The notes below the pieces were generated by a model. The model made no database searches, was not told the DNA's origin, and worked only from the letters and a program-made list of their open reading frames with translations. A stretch of DNA of 64,000 nucleotides from Candidatus Tectimicrobiota bacterium (lineage in GTDB: Bacteria; JACPUC01): contig JACPUC010000002.1 in assembly GCA_016192455.1 (NCBI GenBank), positions 1-64,000 of the forward strand, given 5' to 3'. This document shows, piece after piece, positions 40,736 to 64,000 of the stretch (positions are counted from its first letter, which is position 1; the number at the start of each line of letters is the position of its first letter). Position numbers and translations under genes: made by a program.

Positions 40736-41200
40736 TTAGAGCTTCTTGATCTCCGCGATCAGCTCGTTGTTCTCGGGGATTCCCTTCTCCCAAACCTTGC
40801 TGAAGCGGATCGTGCCCGCCTTGTCGATAAGGAAGCAGGCTCGCTTCGAGAAGCCCTTCTCGTTGAAGACGCCGAAGGTCTGCGCGGCCTTGCCGTGCGG
40901 GTAGAAGTCCGACAGCATGGGGAAGGAGATGCCTCCCAGCTTCTCGGCGAACACCTTGTTGCTGAAGACGCTGTCACAACTGATACTCACGACCTGAGTA
41001 TTGAGCTCTTCGAAGCGCTTGCGGTCGGCCTCGAAGTTCTTCAGCTCATTCTCTCACCCAGGTGTGAAGGCGAGGGGGTAGAAAGCGACGAGGACATTCT
41101 TCTTGCCGCGGTACTCAGCCAGCGAGTGGTTCTTGCCGAACTCGATCGCAAGCTCGACCGAGGGGGCTTTGGTACCGGGCTGTAAGGGTTGATCAGCCAT
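40736..41200 (-). CDS. Peroxiredoxin (AhpC/TSA, AhpE/BCP-like), selenocysteine-containing; in-frame TGA at 41056-41054
   Basis: AAAGGAGG RBS, then MADQPLQPG.KAP...VLVAFYPLAFTPG-TGA-ENEL...SISCDS...FPMLSDF.PHG...RACFLID; TGA is at the peroxidatic-Cys position and the frame stays open on both sides. Confidence 0.88.
41003..41047 (-). promoter_or_regulatory. Candidate SECIS hairpin of the peroxiredoxin gene
   Basis: After UGA: GAGCU...CUUCGAGGC-loop(CGACCGCAAGC)-GCUUCGAAG-AGCUC; 9-bp upper stem with one G-U pair. Confidence 0.5.
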
Positions 41201-55920: not shown

Positions 55921-56055
55921 GCCGCGGAGCGGCCCGACGCAGCCCGGCGGCCGGGGGGGGCCGCGGTGGGCGCGATGGATGGCCGCAACCTCCTCCGCCA
56001 TGCGTCGTGTTTCTCCTCCGCGTGCGAGGGGAGCGAGTGCTCTGAAGGGGCTGGT

Positions 56056-57402
56056 ATGGTCGAGCCATTGCGTGTCGTGCACTACCTCAATCAGTTCTTC
56101 GGGCAGATCGGCGGCGAGGAGAAGGCGGACGCAGCGCCGCGCCTGCACCAGGGCCCGCTCGGACCGGGGCTGCTCCTCCAGGAACGGCTTGGAGAGCGGG
56201 GCAGGGTGGTCGCCACCGTCATCTGCGGCGACAATTACGCGGCGGAGCGTCAGGAGACCGCCGGCGAGGTGCTGGCCCTGCTGCGGGGGCTGGAGTTCGA
56301 CGCCTTTGTGGCGGGTCCCGCGTTCAACGCCGGGCGGTACGGCCTGGCCTGCGGCAGCCTCTGCGCGGCGGTGCGGGAGGCGCGCGGGGTGCCCTGCGTG
56401 ACCGGCATGTTTGCCGAGAACCCAGCGGTGGAGCAGTTCCGCCGCCGCGCCTACATCGTGCGCAGCGGCTCCACGGCGAGGGAGATGGCGCAGGCCATGG
56501 AGGCGGTGACGGCGCTGCTCCTGAAGCTCGCCGCGGCGCCGGACGAGACCGGGGTGCAGGCTGGCGGCCTCGCCGTCTCGCCGGAAGCTGATGGCTACTT
56601 TCCGCAGGGGCGCACGGTGAACGTCGTCGGCGATCGCCTTGCCGCCGCGCGCGCCGTGGAGATGCTCCTCGCCAGAGTGCAGGGGCGGCCGTTCCACACC
56701 GAGATCCCCCTGCCCGCGCCGGGGCGCGTGCCGCCGGCGCCGGCGCTGCGGGAACTGCGCGGCGCCTGTCTGGCGCTGGTGACGGAGGGAGGGCTGGTGC
56801 CGGCGGGCAACCCCGATGGCCTCGTGGGGGCGCGGGCGAGCAGCTATCGCGCTTACAGCATCGCGGGGCTCGGGTCGCTCCGGGCCGGGGCCTACGAGTC
56901 GGTGCACCGCGGCTTCGACACCTCGGCGGTGAACGCCGATCCGAACCGCATCGTGCCGCTCGACGCGGCGCGCCAGCTCGAAGCCGAGGGGGTGTTCGGC
57001 AAGCTCCACGAGACCTACTATGTCACCTCCGGCTGCGCCACCTGGATCGAGAGCAGTCAGGCGATGGCCGCCGGCATTGCCGCGGAGCTGCGCCGAAACG
57101 GCGTGGACGGAGTCATCCTCACCGCGACGTGAGGCACCGGGGTGCGCTGCGGGGCAGCGATGGCACGTGAGCTGGAGCGGCAGGGCATTCCCACGGCGCT
57201 CGTCGCCACCCTCGTCTCCACGGCGCTGACGGTGGGGGCGAACCGCATCGTTGTGGGGACCGGCATCCAGCATCCGCTCGGCAACCCGAAGCTCAGCGCC
57301 GAGGAGGAGCGCCGCCAGCGCCGCAGGCTCCTGGAGTGCGCGCTCCAGAGCCTGACGACGGACCTCCAGGAACAACGGGTCTTCGAGGCCGCGGCGGCCT
57401 GA
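56056..57402 (+). CDS. grdB: Glycine/betaine reductase selenoprotein B-like; in-frame TGA (Sec) at 57130-57132
   Basis: RVVHYLNQFFGQIGGEEKAD, ICGDNY, AGPAFNAGRYG.ACG, LVTEGG.VP.GNPD, NADPNR.VPLD, then VILTAT-TGA-GTGVRCGAAMARELERQGIP...VGANRIV...HPLGNP in the same frame. Confidence 0.92.
57142..57166 (+). promoter_or_regulatory. Candidate SECIS hairpin of grdB
   Basis: CGCTGC-GGG-GCAGCG stem-loop (57145-57159) starting 13 nt after the TGA, extended by GTG/CAC. Confidence 0.65.
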
Positions 57403-60225: not shown

Positions 60226-60255
60226 TTGACGTAGGAAGCTTTGCGAGAGTACTAT
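60226..60255 (+). promoter_or_regulatory. Putative sigma70 promoter of the UGSC/flavoprotein unit
   Basis: TTGACG-N18-TACTAT. Confidence 0.55.
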
Positions 60256-60439: not shown

Positions 60440-61462
60440 ATGAGCCAAGCCAGGGGTGTGGCCGCAATCACCGTTGCTTCCCTCGAGGAGGCGCTTGAGA
60501 CCTGTTACGCGCGGGGTTGGACTGATGGTCTGCCCGTGATCCCGCCGACGGAGGGCCGCGTGCAGGGTATGCTTGCGGCGGCGGGGCGCCGGGGCGGCGA
60601 GCTCGTGGCGCACGTCAGCACGCGGCGCTGCAGCATCACCGCGCAGCAAATCGCCGTCAACGCGGTGATGGCGGGCTGCCTGCCGGAGTACTACCCCGTG
60701 GTCGAGACGGCGGTGCGGGCCATCGCCCAGCCGCAGTTTGGCGTGCATGGACCGATCACCAGCACCGCCGGCGCGGCCATCCTGGTGATCGTGCATGGTC
60801 CCATGGCGCGCCGGCTCGGCGTCCGCAGCGGCGGCAACCTCCTGGGGCCCGGGGCGCGCGCCAACGCCACCATCGGCCGGGCCCTGCGCCTGGTGATCCT
60901 CAATGTCCTTGGGGCGCGGGGCGAGCTCGACCGCTCCACGTTCGGCCAGCCGGGGAAGTACACCTCGTGCATTGCCGAGCACGATTCCTCCGGCCCCTGG
61001 CCACCCCTGCACGCCGCCCGCGGGCTGGACCCTGGGTGCAGCGCCGTGACCGTCTTCGCCTGCGAGGCGCAGCACCAGGTGAACGACCACCTGAGCGCCA
61101 CGCCGCAGGGCATCCTCGACACTGTGGCGCGGGTCATGGCCTTGCGCGGGCAGTGTGAGTACCTCCTCGTCTTCGGCGCCGAGCACCTGGCCACGCTGCG
61201 GGCGGCCGGCTGGTCGCGTCAGGATGTGGTGGACTACCTCTGGCGGCAGGCCCGGGCGCCCCTGGCCTACCTGAAGACGCTCATGAAGGTGCCCGGCTCC
61301 ATCGAGCCGGGCGATGGCGAGCAGCTCGTGCGGGTGGTGGAAGAGCCCGGGGACATCATGGTGATGCACGCGGGCGGCGAGGCGGGGCGCTTCTCACTCT
61401 GCTTCTATGGCTGGGCGACGCGCCGGAACTCCCGCGCCGTCACCCTCCCACTCGAGGGGTAA
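60440..61462 (+). CDS. Conserved uncharacterised protein of the family that accompanies UGSC-motif (seleno)proteins
   Basis: GWTDGLPVIPPT, IAVNAVMAGC.PEY, RANATIGRALRL, GQPGKY..CIAE; ends 7 nt before the UGSC gene. Confidence 0.75.
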   Translation: MSQARGVAAITVASLEEALETCYARGWTDGLPVIPPTEGRVQGMLAAAGRRGGELVAHVSTRRCSITAQQIAVNAVMAGCLPEYYPVVETAVRAIAQPQFGVHGPITSTAGAAILVIVHGPMARRLGVRSGGNLLGPGARANATIGRALRLVILNVLGARGELDRSTFGQPGKYTSCIAEHDSSGPWPPLHAARGLDPGCSAVTVFACEAQHQVNDHLSATPQGILDTVARVMALRGQCEYLLVFGAEHLATLRAAGWSRQDVVDYLWRQARAPLAYLKTLMKVPGSIEPGDGEQLVRVVEEPGDIMVMHAGGEAGRFSLCFYGWATRRNSRAVTLPLEG

Positions 61463-61469
61463 TCTGCAC

Positions 61470-62069
61470 ATGGTCCAGCCCTCTGCCGTGGAAGGCGCCT
61501 TTGCGGCGCCGCTCCGCCTCCTGGCGCCGGACGACGTCGGCGAAGCGGAAGCGCTGCCGCTTGCGGCGCGACCGGCGTCGTTCGAGGGGAGGGTGCTTGG
61601 CATCCTCGACAACCGCAAGCACAACTCCGAGCGCCTGCTCCTCGAAGTGGGAGAGCTGCTGCGCCGGCAGTACCGCCTGCGCGATGTCCGCCTGCACAAG
61701 AAGCCGAGCTTCAACGTTGAGGTGAGCCCGGAGCTGCTCCAGGCCATGGTGCAGGAGTGCGACCTGGTGGTCACCGGCATCGGCGACTGAGGGTCGTGCA
61801 GTTCGAGCAGTGTGCTCGACGCCATCCTCTTCGAGCAGGCCGGGGTGCCAAGCGCGGCGATCGTCACCGACGCCTTCGTCCGCACCGGGGCCGCCATTGC
61901 GGCGGCGTGGGGCATGCCCGATTACGGCTTCGCCGTGACCCATCATCCGATCGTGATTCAATCGACTGCGGAACTGGCGCGCTGGGCAACCGAGGTGGTG
62001 CCGCAGGTGCGGGCGATTCTCTCCGGGGAGGCCGCGTCGGGCGGGCGCGAAGGCAACCGAAGGGAGTAG
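61470..62069 (+). CDS. UGSC-motif selenoprotein; in-frame TGA (Sec) at 61788-61790
   Basis: LAARP..FEG..LGILDNRKHNS...CDLVVTGIGD-TGA-GSCSSSSVLDAI.FE.AGVP...TDAF...HHP; the two ORF-track halves are in one frame and give a UxxC motif. Confidence 0.9.
61803..61819 (+). promoter_or_regulatory. Candidate SECIS hairpin of the UGSC gene
   Basis: TCGAGCA-GTG-TGCTCGA perfect 7-bp stem starting 13 nt after the TGA. Confidence 0.65.
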
Positions 62070-62120: not shown

Positions 62121-63893
62121 ATGCTGCCGAAAGGTGTCGTCGATCAGGAGCTGCGCGTCGATCTCCTCGTCCTCGGCTCTGAGGGGGCCGGCGCCAAGGC
62201 TGCCATTGAAGCGTATGACCTTGGCGTCACCAACAGTGTCATGGTGACGAAGGGGTTCTTCGGCAAGAGCGGCGTGACACTGATGGCGGGCCGTGCCGTG
62301 CAGGCCGCCCTTGGCCATATGGACCCCCATGACAACCCCGAGGTGCACCTGAAAGACACCGTGGAGGTCGGAGGGTACCTGACCAACCAGAAGCTCTCCG
62401 AGCGGCTCGTCACCCTGGCGCTCACCGAGATTCCGAAGCTGGAGACCTGGGGCGCCCGCTTCCAGAAAGAGGGAGACAAGTTCTTCCAGATCCAGTTGCC
62501 CGGCGCCTCCTATCCGCGCTCCTGCACCTCCGCCGTGCAGCAGGGCGGCCTCGAGTGGCGGCGCGCTTACAAGGCGCAGGCGCGCAAACGGCGCCTGCGG
62601 GTGCTGGAGAACGTCTTCGTCACCTCCCTGATGACGAAGGGGGGCCGCGTCTGCGGCGCCACCGCGGTCAACCTCGCCGACGGCCAGTTCTACCTCCTGC
62701 GCGCCAAGGCCGTGGTGCTGGCCTGCGGCGGCGCGACGCAGCTCTTCCCCCATACCGACGCCGCGCTGGAGGCCACCGGCGACGGCATGGCGCTCGCCTA
62801 CCGCGCCGGCTGCGACCTGGTGGACATGGAGTTCCACATGTTCTTCCCGTTCGGCGTGCTCTGGCCGACGGGCTTCCAGGGCCAAATCTGGCCGGCGGAC
62901 TTCCGCTACCGGCTGCGCGCCAAGTTCTACAACAACCTCGGCGAGGAATTCCTCCTGCGCTACCAGCCGGAGTGGGGCAACTGGGGGCTGCGCGACCCGA
63001 CCTCGCAGGCGATCTACCTCGAGAACCTCTACGGGCGCGGCTCGCCGCACGGTGGCGCCTACCTGTCGATCAACCACCTGCCGCGGAACATGATCGACAA
63101 CTTCATCGCCAAGTTCCACCGCAACCGCAAGAAGTGGTACTGGACGAAGCTGCAGCAGCTTGGCGTGGACCTGCGCACTGATGCCATCGAGGTGGGGCCG
63201 GTCTCCCACTACACCATGGGCGGTGTGCGCGTGGATGAGTGCTGCCGCACCACGCTGCAAGGCCTCTTCGCTGCCGGCGAGGTGGCGGGAGGGATGGACG
63301 GTGCCGAGCGCCTCGACGGCGGCCCGGCGATCACCTGGACCCAGACCATGGGACTAATCTGCGCCCAGGAGAGTGCCGCCCACCTGCAAGGCGCCGAGCT
63401 GCCGGAGATTGATGCGCAGCAGGTGCGGGAGGCCCGCGAGCGGGCCTACCAGCCGCTGGCGCGCTCCGAAGGTCCGCGAGGTTACGAGGCGAAGCGGCTC
63501 GTCAAACAGCTCATGGGCGCCGCCTGCACCTTCGTGCGCGACGAGGCGCGCCTGCGGGAGGGCTTGGCGCGGCTGGCGCGCCTGCGGGAAGAGGTGCTGC
63601 CGCGGCTCTCCGCCAATCCGACGCGCCGCTACAACCGGGACTGGGTGCACGCCCTTGAGGCGCAGAACCTTGCCGATGTTGCCGAGCTGGTGCTGCATGC
63701 GGCGCTCACCCGGCGCGAGAGCCGCAAGGCGCATTTCCGCTCGGACTTCCCGAAGGAAGACCCGGCGTGGATCAAGAACGTCATCCTGCGGCGGGGGGGA
63801 GATGGGCGGCTGGAGGTCCAGATCGTCGATCCGGTGATGACGAAAGTGTTTCCCCCGGTGACCACTCCGTCCGGCCGCGATGGTTCAGCATGA
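62121..63893 (+). CDS. FAD-dependent oxidoreductase, SdhA/FrdA/NadB/AprA superfamily flavoprotein subunit
   Basis: DLLVLGSEGAG, AKAVVLACGG, TGDGMALAYRAG, HYTMGG, GLFAAGE, RRESRKAHFRSDFP. Confidence 0.88.
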   Translation: MLPKGVVDQELRVDLLVLGSEGAGAKAAIEAYDLGVTNSVMVTKGFFGKSGVTLMAGRAVQAALGHMDPHDNPEVHLKDTVEVGGYLTNQKLSERLVTLALTEIPKLETWGARFQKEGDKFFQIQLPGASYPRSCTSAVQQGGLEWRRAYKAQARKRRLRVLENVFVTSLMTKGGRVCGATAVNLADGQFYLLRAKAVVLACGGATQLFPHTDAALEATGDGMALAYRAGCDLVDMEFHMFFPFGVLWPTGFQGQIWPADFRYRLRAKFYNNLGEEFLLRYQPEWGNWGLRDPTSQAIYLENLYGRGSPHGGAYLSINHLPRNMIDNFIAKFHRNRKKWYWTKLQQLGVDLRTDAIEVGPVSHYTMGGVRVDECCRTTLQGLFAAGEVAGGMDGAERLDGGPAITWTQTMGLICAQESAAHLQGAELPEIDAQQVREARERAYQPLARSEGPRGYEAKRLVKQLMGAACTFVRDEARLREGLARLARLREEVLPRLSANPTRRYNRDWVHALEAQNLADVAELVLHAALTRRESRKAHFRSDFPKEDPAWIKNVILRRGGDGRLEVQIVDPVMTKVFPPVTTPSGRDGSA

Positions 63894-63914: not shown

Positions 63915-64000
63915 ATGATGGGGAAGATGGGGAAAGAATCAGCTCGCAGCTCCAGTTCTGAAGGCACGGTCGAAGTGTTTCGTTTCGATCCCAAGGTCGA
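63915..64000 (+). CDS. Probable SdhB/FrdB-type iron-sulfur subunit, 5' fragment
   Basis: Frame reads ...GTVEVFRFDPKV directly after the flavoprotein, typical of SdhB/FrdB N-termini; truncated by the window end. Confidence 0.6.
   Translation, partial: MMGKMGKESARSSSSEGTVEVFRFDPKV

Follow-up and report, generated by a model that had tools for sequence, protein, structure and literature searches.

The 64,000-nucleotide window analysed here (positions 1-64000 of contig C5 in the Candidatus Tectimicrobiota source genome, G000; 68% G+C) encodes, at 61470-62069, a genuine selenoprotein of the UGSC family, a match that goes beyond what chance would give. The gene is coupled to the open reading frame (ORF) immediately upstream, whose product is referred to below as the partner. 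There is about an even chance that the two products form a two-subunit selenol/thiol-dependent oxidoreductase, in which the selenocysteine (Sec) at position 107 lies in a core related to that of GrdB and PrdB and faces a pocket of the 340-aa partner. A fusion of the two proteins was already published in 2008 (PMC2398784), and the core finding is therefore not new to the literature. The three elements on which the argument turns are as follows.

61470-62069, + strand: UGSC-family selenoprotein gene, 199 aa, with Sec107 encoded by TGA 61788-61790 and the motif D-U-G-S-C
61803-61819, + strand: hairpin of the Sec insertion sequence (SECIS) type, 13 nt past the UGA, with a 7-bp stem (61803-61809/61813-61819) and a GUG loop (61810-61812)
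60440-61462, + strand: partner gene, 340 aa, with the motifs WTDGLPVxPPT and NAVMAGC (Cys80)

On the + strand, positions 61782-61799 read GGC GAC TGA GGG TCG TGC. When TGA is decoded as Sec (U), the frame 61470-62069 runs without another stop through 199 residues, of which U is number 107, and the ATG at 61470 is the likeliest start. An earlier interpretation made from the letters alone (the sequence-only reading) had proposed a hidden UGSC-family selenoprotein of this length, TGA context and Sec codon, with gaps of 7 and 51 nt to its neighbours and a promoter-like site at 60226-60255, and all of these coordinates proved right. The read-through protein scores 132.8 bits against NCBIfam NF041046, 'UGSC family (seleno)protein' (cut-off 125), and 182.8 bits against Pfam PF24696 (cut-off 25), the latter as one match spanning the TGA from residue 17 to residue 185. 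A search of 5.8 billion proteins within a length band of 109-349 aa returned only 14 relatives. In the alignment of 13 of these (a 116-aa fragment was left out), the column of U107 is Cys in every homologue (motif DCGSC), and D106, C107, G108, S109, C110, H159 and P160 are invariant. Among 163 UGSC genes covering the Sec region in the 161 loci described below, the residue at column 107 (hmmalign count) is U/TGA in 153, Cys in nine and Ser in one, and the residue three positions on (+3, column 110) is Cys in 110 and Ser in 53. Thus the homologues with Cys opposite the TGA, and the downstream half conserved in frame, that the sequence-only reading had called for were both found. Two further UGSC copies lie in the source genome, on contigs C9 and C7, both with a TGA. 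For comparison, the portions of the earlier metagenomic work covered here count 255 Sec forms and 21 Cys forms of the family in the GOS data (PMC2398784, PMC1976440). A large subfamily reads H-U-G-S-S, with Ser in place of the +3 Cys (metagenome loci L115-L158 and others, e.g. L120:5566-5613); its hairpin differs, being a 7-bp G+C-rich stem that begins about 18 nt past the UGA.

The window gene is also in a Sec-decoding context. Its hairpin stem is identical in the C9 copy and differs by one G-U pair in the C7 copy. Other loci provided 74 different downstream stretches of the UxxC type, and 60 of them were aligned to measure covariation. In this helix the share of paired cells is 96.2%, whereas shuffles give 84.5 +/- 1.1 (0/500 reach 96.2%), and pairing is at most 60.2% when the facing columns are slid; both sides have changed in 35 cells, against 9.6 in shuffles (0/500 reach 35). 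For example, pair 19-29 is UA in 45 sequences, GU in seven, AU in six and CG in two, while pair 21-27 is CG in 40 and GC in 20. Rfam at gathering thresholds gave 0 matches over the whole window, and hence no curated RNA family over the hairpin. The genome contains tRNA-Sec (RF01852, 75.5 bits; ARAGORN anticodon tca) together with selA (596 bits), selB (366 bits) and selD (389 bits). Given the compensatory changes in the hairpin and this machinery, Sec insertion at the TGA is predicted. Two side observations belong here. The selD gene (C3:190907-191827) has one in-frame TGA itself, so that SelD would be a selenoprotein as well. In addition, the SECIS stem lies inside codons, and the residues at +5 (S/C/W) and +8 (L/H) from Sec covary (alignment columns 16-32, equal to window 61803-61819); because the stem sits within codons, the RNA pairing appears to shape the protein sequence of UGSC.

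The partner matches no Pfam or NCBIfam family, and neither does any of 26 members of its alignment (best E 0.066). Homologues made up 7,924 of 8,000 scored candidates, all of them unnamed or labelled 'hypothetical', and at a limit of E 0.001 a full HMMER pass yielded 7,051 representatives (50% identity), 2,017 of which reach E 1e-30 or better. The family has nevertheless been seen before: Zhang and Gladyshev (2008, Fig. S1A; PMC2398784) drew a 'UGSC/Unknown_1' fusion whose Unknown_1 block contains a highlighted Cys, and the partner corresponds to this Unknown_1 domain, since it shares with that block the AVNxVMAGC-PEY motif and the Cys in question. The description of the partner as uncharacterised therefore stands as far as Pfam and NCBIfam go, but its coupling to UGSC was not new. 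The Cys of NAVMAGC, which had looked conserved in the window sequence, is indeed so: across 188 partner domains (hmmalign count) residue 80 is Cys in 156, Ala in 31 and Gly in one. Other conserved positions in the same set are N74 (180), N142 (183), R147 (185), R140 (152) and H249 (152). The public gene call is 300 aa long and begins at residue 41; the true start is placed upstream of it, most likely at the ATG at 60440, because the shorter call would drop the invariant WTDGLPVxPPT (residues 27-37). The AlphaFold2 (AF2) model of the partner has a mean predicted local distance difference test score (pLDDT) of 82.5 and a predicted template modelling score (pTM) of 0.85. The partner profile gave no usable match to PDB sequences (best E 0.33). 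In Foldseek, the best match of the model was the class I fumarate hydratase 7xky_A (E 4.5e-4, TM 0.28), and no fold was assigned; a wide VIA-align comparison reached at best Z 6.4 over 75 residues, with 7xky_A at Z 5.4 over 192 residues and a root-mean-square deviation of 5.2.

The coupling between UGSC and the partner is solid. Loci were picked by the partner alone, 78 from genomes and 80 from metagenomes, and with the three loci of the source genome they total 161. The UGSC gene was found in 64 of the 78 genome contigs and in 74 of the 80 metagenome contigs; several of the partner loci that lack it are short contigs. With an adjacent pair defined as two genes on the same strand no more than 400 nt apart, the 161 loci contain 155 pairs with a median gap of 66 nt, UGSC being first in 97 and the partner in 58. 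At least one such pair occurs in 132 of the 161 loci, and two or more in 16. Each of the three UGSC copies in the source genome lies within 4 kb of a partner copy. When the UGSC motif and partner residue 80 are read together over the 155 pairs, UxxC/Cys is commonest (89, the window pair included), followed by UxxS/Cys (27), UxxS/Ala (20) and UxxC/Ala (9), with CxxS/Cys (5), CxxC/Cys (3), SxxS/Cys (1) and UxxC/Gly (1) being rare. These combinations leave Sec as the sole near-universal redox residue of the pair. The UxxC redox motif stressed by the sequence-only reading is thus present in the window but is too narrow as a description of the family, as the +3 residue is often Ser and both Cys are missing in 20 of the 155 pairs. 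The idea that partner Cys80 substitutes for a missing +3 Cys was considered and rejected on the same 20 pairs. The surroundings of the pair vary: across 81 loci the neighbours include ABC ATPase (20), SDR (12), luciferase-like (10), CoA-transferase III (9), TctC (7), amidase (7) and enoyl-CoA hydratase (6) genes, and four of the 161 loci have a TrxB-like gene close to the pair.

Natural fusions tie the two proteins together further. An ESM Atlas look-up gave the first lead to them. The partner is present in 24 copies in a Burkholderiales-type metagenome-assembled genome (MAG; G062, the genome of L047) and in eight copies in an Acidimicrobiales MAG (G064, the genome of L073). Many of these copies are fused to Sec-UGSC: eight of the 12 long frames examined in these two genomes are in-frame Sec-UGSC/partner fusions, three of which match PF24696 at 93, 70 and 65 bits. 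The search for such fusions that the sequence-only reading had recommended was therefore successful. One fusion (L113:692-2218) has Ala at the position of the partner's conserved Cys. Two Acidimicrobiales frames have an N-terminal extension with a CPTC motif, thioredoxin-like (Trx-like) by motif only; these extensions (L110, L111) match no Pfam family at E 0.01, and TIGR01068 reaches only E 0.17 on L111. A Pfam scan of 30 long partner representatives gave the following classes, whose counts total 31 because P0236 falls in two.

Full UGSC domain N-terminal to the partner: 8/30
C-terminal half of UGSC followed by the partner (gene call truncated at the TGA): 4/30
Partner followed by the N-terminal half of UGSC: 4/30
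AhpC-TSA/Redoxin thioredoxin-fold domain joined to the partner: 4/30
FeThRed_B, the catalytic chain of ferredoxin:thioredoxin reductase (FTR), joined to the partner: 2/30, one also with a UGSC half
Pyr_redox_2, thioredoxin reductase-like (TrxR-like), joined to the partner: 1/30
No Pfam match: 8/30

The FTR catalytic chain (PF02943) and TrxR-like Pyr_redox_2 fusions are P0184, P0236 and P0251. As judged from domain content, the fusions to UGSC and to thioredoxin-fold, FTR-like and TrxR-like modules point to a putative selenol/thiol-driven reductase.

Structure prediction supports the view that UGSC may bind the partner. The prediction was run on the natural Cys-type pair of locus L036, whose partner is 41% identical to that of the window. 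This pair scored 0.77, while the best of three controls scored 0.00; among calibration sets, 116 of 157 solved complexes and two of 215 mismatched pairs attain 0.77, a rough calibration because custom alignments were used. The runs share at least 92% of contacts, with a partner-chain pLDDT of at least 86. On the UGSC side, the predicted interface contains the Sec-equivalent segment C97-G98-S99 and the invariant residues N38, K40, K68 and F126; on the partner side, it contains W21, residues 29-32, N68, M71, H97-G98, S102-T103 and N149.

The AF2 model of UGSC itself (pLDDT 87.1) shows five strand-helix units in a flavodoxin-like alpha/beta order, with Sec where helix 3 begins, directly behind strand 3. 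Against the PDB it finds only generic flavodoxin-like or Rossmann-like matches (best Z 10.6), and no thioredoxin-fold chain is among the matches listed; the UGSC profile gave no usable match to PDB sequences (best E 0.096). In its passages on the family, the 2008 paper had guessed a Trx-like fold (PMC2398784). The comparison with GrdB was made by hhalign. The UGSC profile aligned with a set of 11 Sec-domain sequences at 89% (E 2.3e-6) over 62 columns, with U opposite U, and with four full-length GrdB sequences at 74.9% (E 2.6e-5) over 99 columns. Among the controls, reversed columns gave 0.2%, 32 column-shuffle rows gave at most 0.7%, and UGSC against the partner gave 0.2%. As these alignments are small, the kinship to GrdB/PrdB is placed at the domain level only. 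The portions of the literature that name both UGSC and GrdB treat them as separate families. Two candidate relationships for the partner were tried and rejected: as a relative of the GrdB N-domain it scored 0.3% against full-length GrdB, and as a relative of GrdE/PrdA it scored 0.6% against the window's GrdE-like protein, the template being a single sequence. The window does contain a GrdE-like gene (PF09338; 54571-55920, + strand) followed by a GrdB-like selenoprotein gene (55966-57402, + strand; TGA 57130-57132), approximately 4 kb upstream of UGSC. This GrdB-like protein matches TIGR01918 with 349 and 90 bits for its two halves and returned 0 matches against PDB sequences. Three GrdB-like selenoproteins of full length occur in the source genome, along with two shorter selenoproteins that are PrdB-like (C30:50753-51157 and C25:22845-23216).

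Based on the results presented above, a mechanism may be proposed for the two-subunit oxidoreductase. UGSC would act as a small flavodoxin-like subunit, separate here and joined with the partner in one fused chain in other organisms. The partner, which is probably the substrate-binding subunit, would provide a pocket formed by the near-invariant Asn74, Asn142, Arg147, Arg140 and His249, plus Cys80 in this subfamily, and Sec107 would stand at the interface facing this pocket. Sec may then attack either an oxidised residue of the partner or a small molecule bound as substrate, the latter probably a carboxylate. Subsequently, a selenenyl-sulfide might form with Cys110 or Cys80 in the window pair, and it would be re-reduced by a lineage-specific electron-input module. 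Elsewhere this module may be of the thioredoxin-fold, TrxR-like or FTR-like type; in the window operon it is possibly an SdhA-like flavoprotein together with a 2Fe-2S protein.

Several points weigh against this mechanism. No UGSC gene was found in the DNA examined at 22 of 160 partner loci, some of which have full 10-kb flanks on both sides. Ser replaces the +3 Cys in 53 of the 163 UGSC genes, and Ala or Gly replaces the partner Cys in 32 of the 188 domains; since 20 pairs lack both, redox coupling of Sec with a Cys cannot be the mechanism throughout the family. The predicted complex is that of the homologous L036 pair and not of the window's own proteins, and the partner Cys itself is absent from the interface listed there. 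As the partner model has no clear structural relative, the active-site assignment is drawn from conservation. The link to GrdB is one profile-profile result on small alignments, and the UGSC protein is not matched by TIGR01918 at E 0.01 or better, only UGSC models being listed for it in NCBIfam and Pfam. Finally, the sequence-only reading had remarked that the family lacks a demonstrated function, and this still holds in the portions of the literature covered, which give no biochemical datum for any member; the relevant part of a 2026 review likewise describes functions as still largely uncharacterised and gives none for UGSC (PMC13188914).

The remaining genes of the operon and its putative promoter are listed below.

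60226-60255, + strand: sigma-70-type promoter-like site, TTGACG-18-TACTAT, a predicted site with a 9/12 consensus match only
62121-63893, + strand: divergent SdhA/FrdA/TfrA-like flavoprotein gene binding flavin adenine dinucleotide (FAD), 590 aa, with PF00890 (FAD_binding_2) and PF02910 (Succ_DH_flav_C)
63915-64000, + strand (continuing to C5 64298, past the window): 2Fe-2S protein gene, 127 aa, with PF13085 (Fer2_3) at 81 bits

The promoter-like site is the sole one in C5 60001-66000, against 0.3 +/- 0.5 in shuffles. The genes follow each other closely, with 7 nt between the partner and UGSC, 51 nt between UGSC and the flavoprotein ATG (62121), and 21 nt between the flavoprotein and the 2Fe-2S gene. 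Among NCBIfam models the flavoprotein scores best with TfrA, its 389 bits remaining under the 718-bit cut-off, and its best PDB match is the SdhA chain 7d6v_A (242 bits). In that alignment its FFPFG stands at the FHPTG of 7d6v_A, a substrate-binding position, and Gly stands opposite the His of the KAH-T segment, the site of covalent FAD binding. The 2Fe-2S protein, for which TfrB is the third-best NCBIfam model, covers only positions 5-109 of the 238 of the SdhB model and lacks the C-terminal cluster domain. A flavoprotein gene lies near the pair in two of the 161 loci by phmmer, namely the window locus and L114, a relative of 81% identity in which partner, UGSC and flavoprotein (503 bits) follow one another in the same order; by blastp at E 1e-12 or better, no homologue was found near the partner in 80 other loci. 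A family-wide link to the flavoprotein, which the sequence-only reading had put forward as a functional clue under the name of an SdhA/SdhB-like pair, was accordingly rejected. The name itself also needs correction, for the flavoprotein is without FHPTG, and the 'SdhB' is only a 127-aa 2Fe-2S domain. What survives of that clue is the plausible idea that the flavoprotein might feed or drain the selenol/thiol pair, since other lineages attach TrxR-like or FTR-like modules to the same partner. On local evidence, the flavoprotein and the 2Fe-2S protein are a plausible candidate for an electron input or output module in the window's lineage.

The same data bear on other explanations of the pair. 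UGSC could be merely a thioredoxin-like reductant of a Cys-based partner, with U-x-x-C exchange re-reducing Cys80 at each turnover, as thioredoxin does for methionine sulfoxide reductase. This would agree with the AhpC-TSA/Redoxin domains that replace UGSC in four of the 30 long representatives, with the N-terminal CPTC extensions of the two Acidimicrobiales frames, and with U-x-x-C plus Cys80 being the commonest combination, that of the window included. However, the partner Cys is Ala in 29 of the 155 pairs, 20 of which also lack the +3 Cys, and Sec is kept in these. Moreover, the invariant UGSC residues N48, K50, K78 and F136 belong to the interface of the predicted complex and so suggest a permanent composite site instead of a passing exchange, and the Sec domain to which the UGSC core aligns is the catalytic one of GrdB/PrdB. 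A pure reductant role is thus unlikely.

It is also conceivable that the four genes of the window operon make one complex, in which UGSC and the partner are the thiol/selenol head of the TfrA-like flavoprotein and the 2Fe-2S protein. Such a complex would be a selenium-dependent analogue of thiol:fumarate reductase, with the pair in place of the C-terminal part of TfrB. The close spacing behind a single promoter-like site fits this idea, as do the gene order kept in L114, the only close relative found, the ranks of TfrA and TfrB among the models, and the TrxR-like or FeThRed_B modules that adjoin or join the partner in other lineages. Likewise, because the Fe-S protein is a 2Fe-2S domain only, something else must complete the electron path. 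On the other hand, the SdhA-like gene is near the pair at just those two loci and is missing from the two paralogous loci of the source genome; the TfrA, SdhA and FrdA scores are all far under their curated cut-offs; and FFPFG in place of FHPTG makes fumarate or succinate an unlikely substrate of the flavoprotein. Taken together, a four-part complex appears quite improbable. A related proposal, which we regard as a long shot, is that UGSC and the partner represent a new selenoenzyme class that combines the Sec domain of glycine/proline reductase with an unrelated, unclassified catalytic subunit and is wired here, through the lone 2Fe-2S protein, to a TfrA-like flavoprotein that does not act on fumarate. 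If true, it would be the selenium-dependent counterpart of thiol:fumarate reductase, with UGSC and the partner replacing the thiol-oxidising domain of TfrB.

A role of the pair as a carrier or maturation system (selenium or sulfur transfer, protein repair), with no metabolite as substrate, would suit the highly variable neighbourhood, in which no single pathway is conserved across the 81 loci, and the copy number of up to 24 in one genome; yet many diverged paralogues in different catabolic clusters fit substrate-specialised enzymes better, and the near-invariant Arg/Asn/His pocket resembles a small-molecule site, so that this role is very unlikely. Lastly, although standard ORF calling divides the UGSC frame in two (61407-61790 and 61812-62069), it is hardly credible that translation really ends at the TGA or that the codon is a sequencing mistake, leaving two small genes or a pseudogene, given the single profile match over both halves, the TGA shared at that column by 153 of 163 homologues, the covarying hairpin after it, the full Sec machinery, and the same TGA and hairpin in all three paralogues of the source genome.

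Other genes of the region may be mentioned in passing. A third selenoprotein gene of the window lies at 40736-41200 on the - strand; it is AhpC/TSA peroxiredoxin-like, with TGA 41054-41056 in an FTPGU motif and Sec at the position of the peroxidatic Cys. All three UGSC/partner loci of the source genome have UbiD-family decarboxylase-like genes within approximately 10 kb (C5 71445-72995; C9 98650-100380 and 108842-110461; C7 124725-126131), the C5 copy being confirmed by Pfam and the C9 and C7 copies judged by eye from their translations. The blastp cluster containing the C9 and C7 genes occurs in three of 81 loci, the C5 gene lying beyond the slice compared.

In general, these results make the function of UGSC testable, as the protein now has a defined obligate partner and a predicted interface that contains Sec. 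Function tests are further aided by the kinship with the catalytic Sec domain of GrdB/PrdB and by the fusions, every one of which indicates that electrons are relayed by thiol/selenol-disulfide exchange. The flavoprotein and 2Fe-2S protein of the window operon are, in addition, a concrete candidate of a rare kind for the electron-transfer module. As the +3 Cys and the partner Cys can each be missing, the mechanism is narrowed to Sec itself.

Compared with the known UGSC family (NF041046, PF24696), the window protein has the same D-U-G-S-C motif, length and HP motif, the family being mostly Sec with rare Cys forms. No feature of the protein excludes membership, and what is unusual for the family is the operon with an SdhA-like flavoprotein. 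Compared with the published UGSC/Unknown_1 fusion (PMC2398784), the two proteins have genes of their own in the window, that of UGSC starting 7 nt behind that of the partner; the published figure is an alignment block only and gives no function. The genes that follow UGSC in the operon have FAD_binding_2, Succ_DH_flav_C and 2Fe-2S domains in common with TfrAB and SdhAB/FrdAB, but unlike those systems they score under the curated cut-offs, read FFPFG for FHPTG and include a single-domain Fe-S protein. Thioredoxin-type relays offer another comparison: thioredoxin-fold, TrxR and FTR modules are joined to the partner, replacing UGSC or adding to it, which fits a thiol/selenol-disulfide relay, although UGSC, unlike these relays, is modelled with a flavodoxin-like fold and retains Sec even without the second Cys. 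A parallel in layout is the Sec core of GrdB/PrdB (TIGR01918, PF07355), as seen in GrdB/PrdB-like selenoproteins of the source genome and of other genomes. Like that of UGSC, it runs from a strand through Sec, a Cys shortly after it and a helix to E-x-x-G-[IV]-P, another strand and HP, and in both systems the Sec protein is paired with a second, larger subunit. In glycine and proline reductases, GrdE and PrdA carry a pyruvoyl group. Unlike GrdB, UGSC is without the N-terminal GRDB domain, and its partner bears no likeness to GrdB or to the window's GrdE-like protein.

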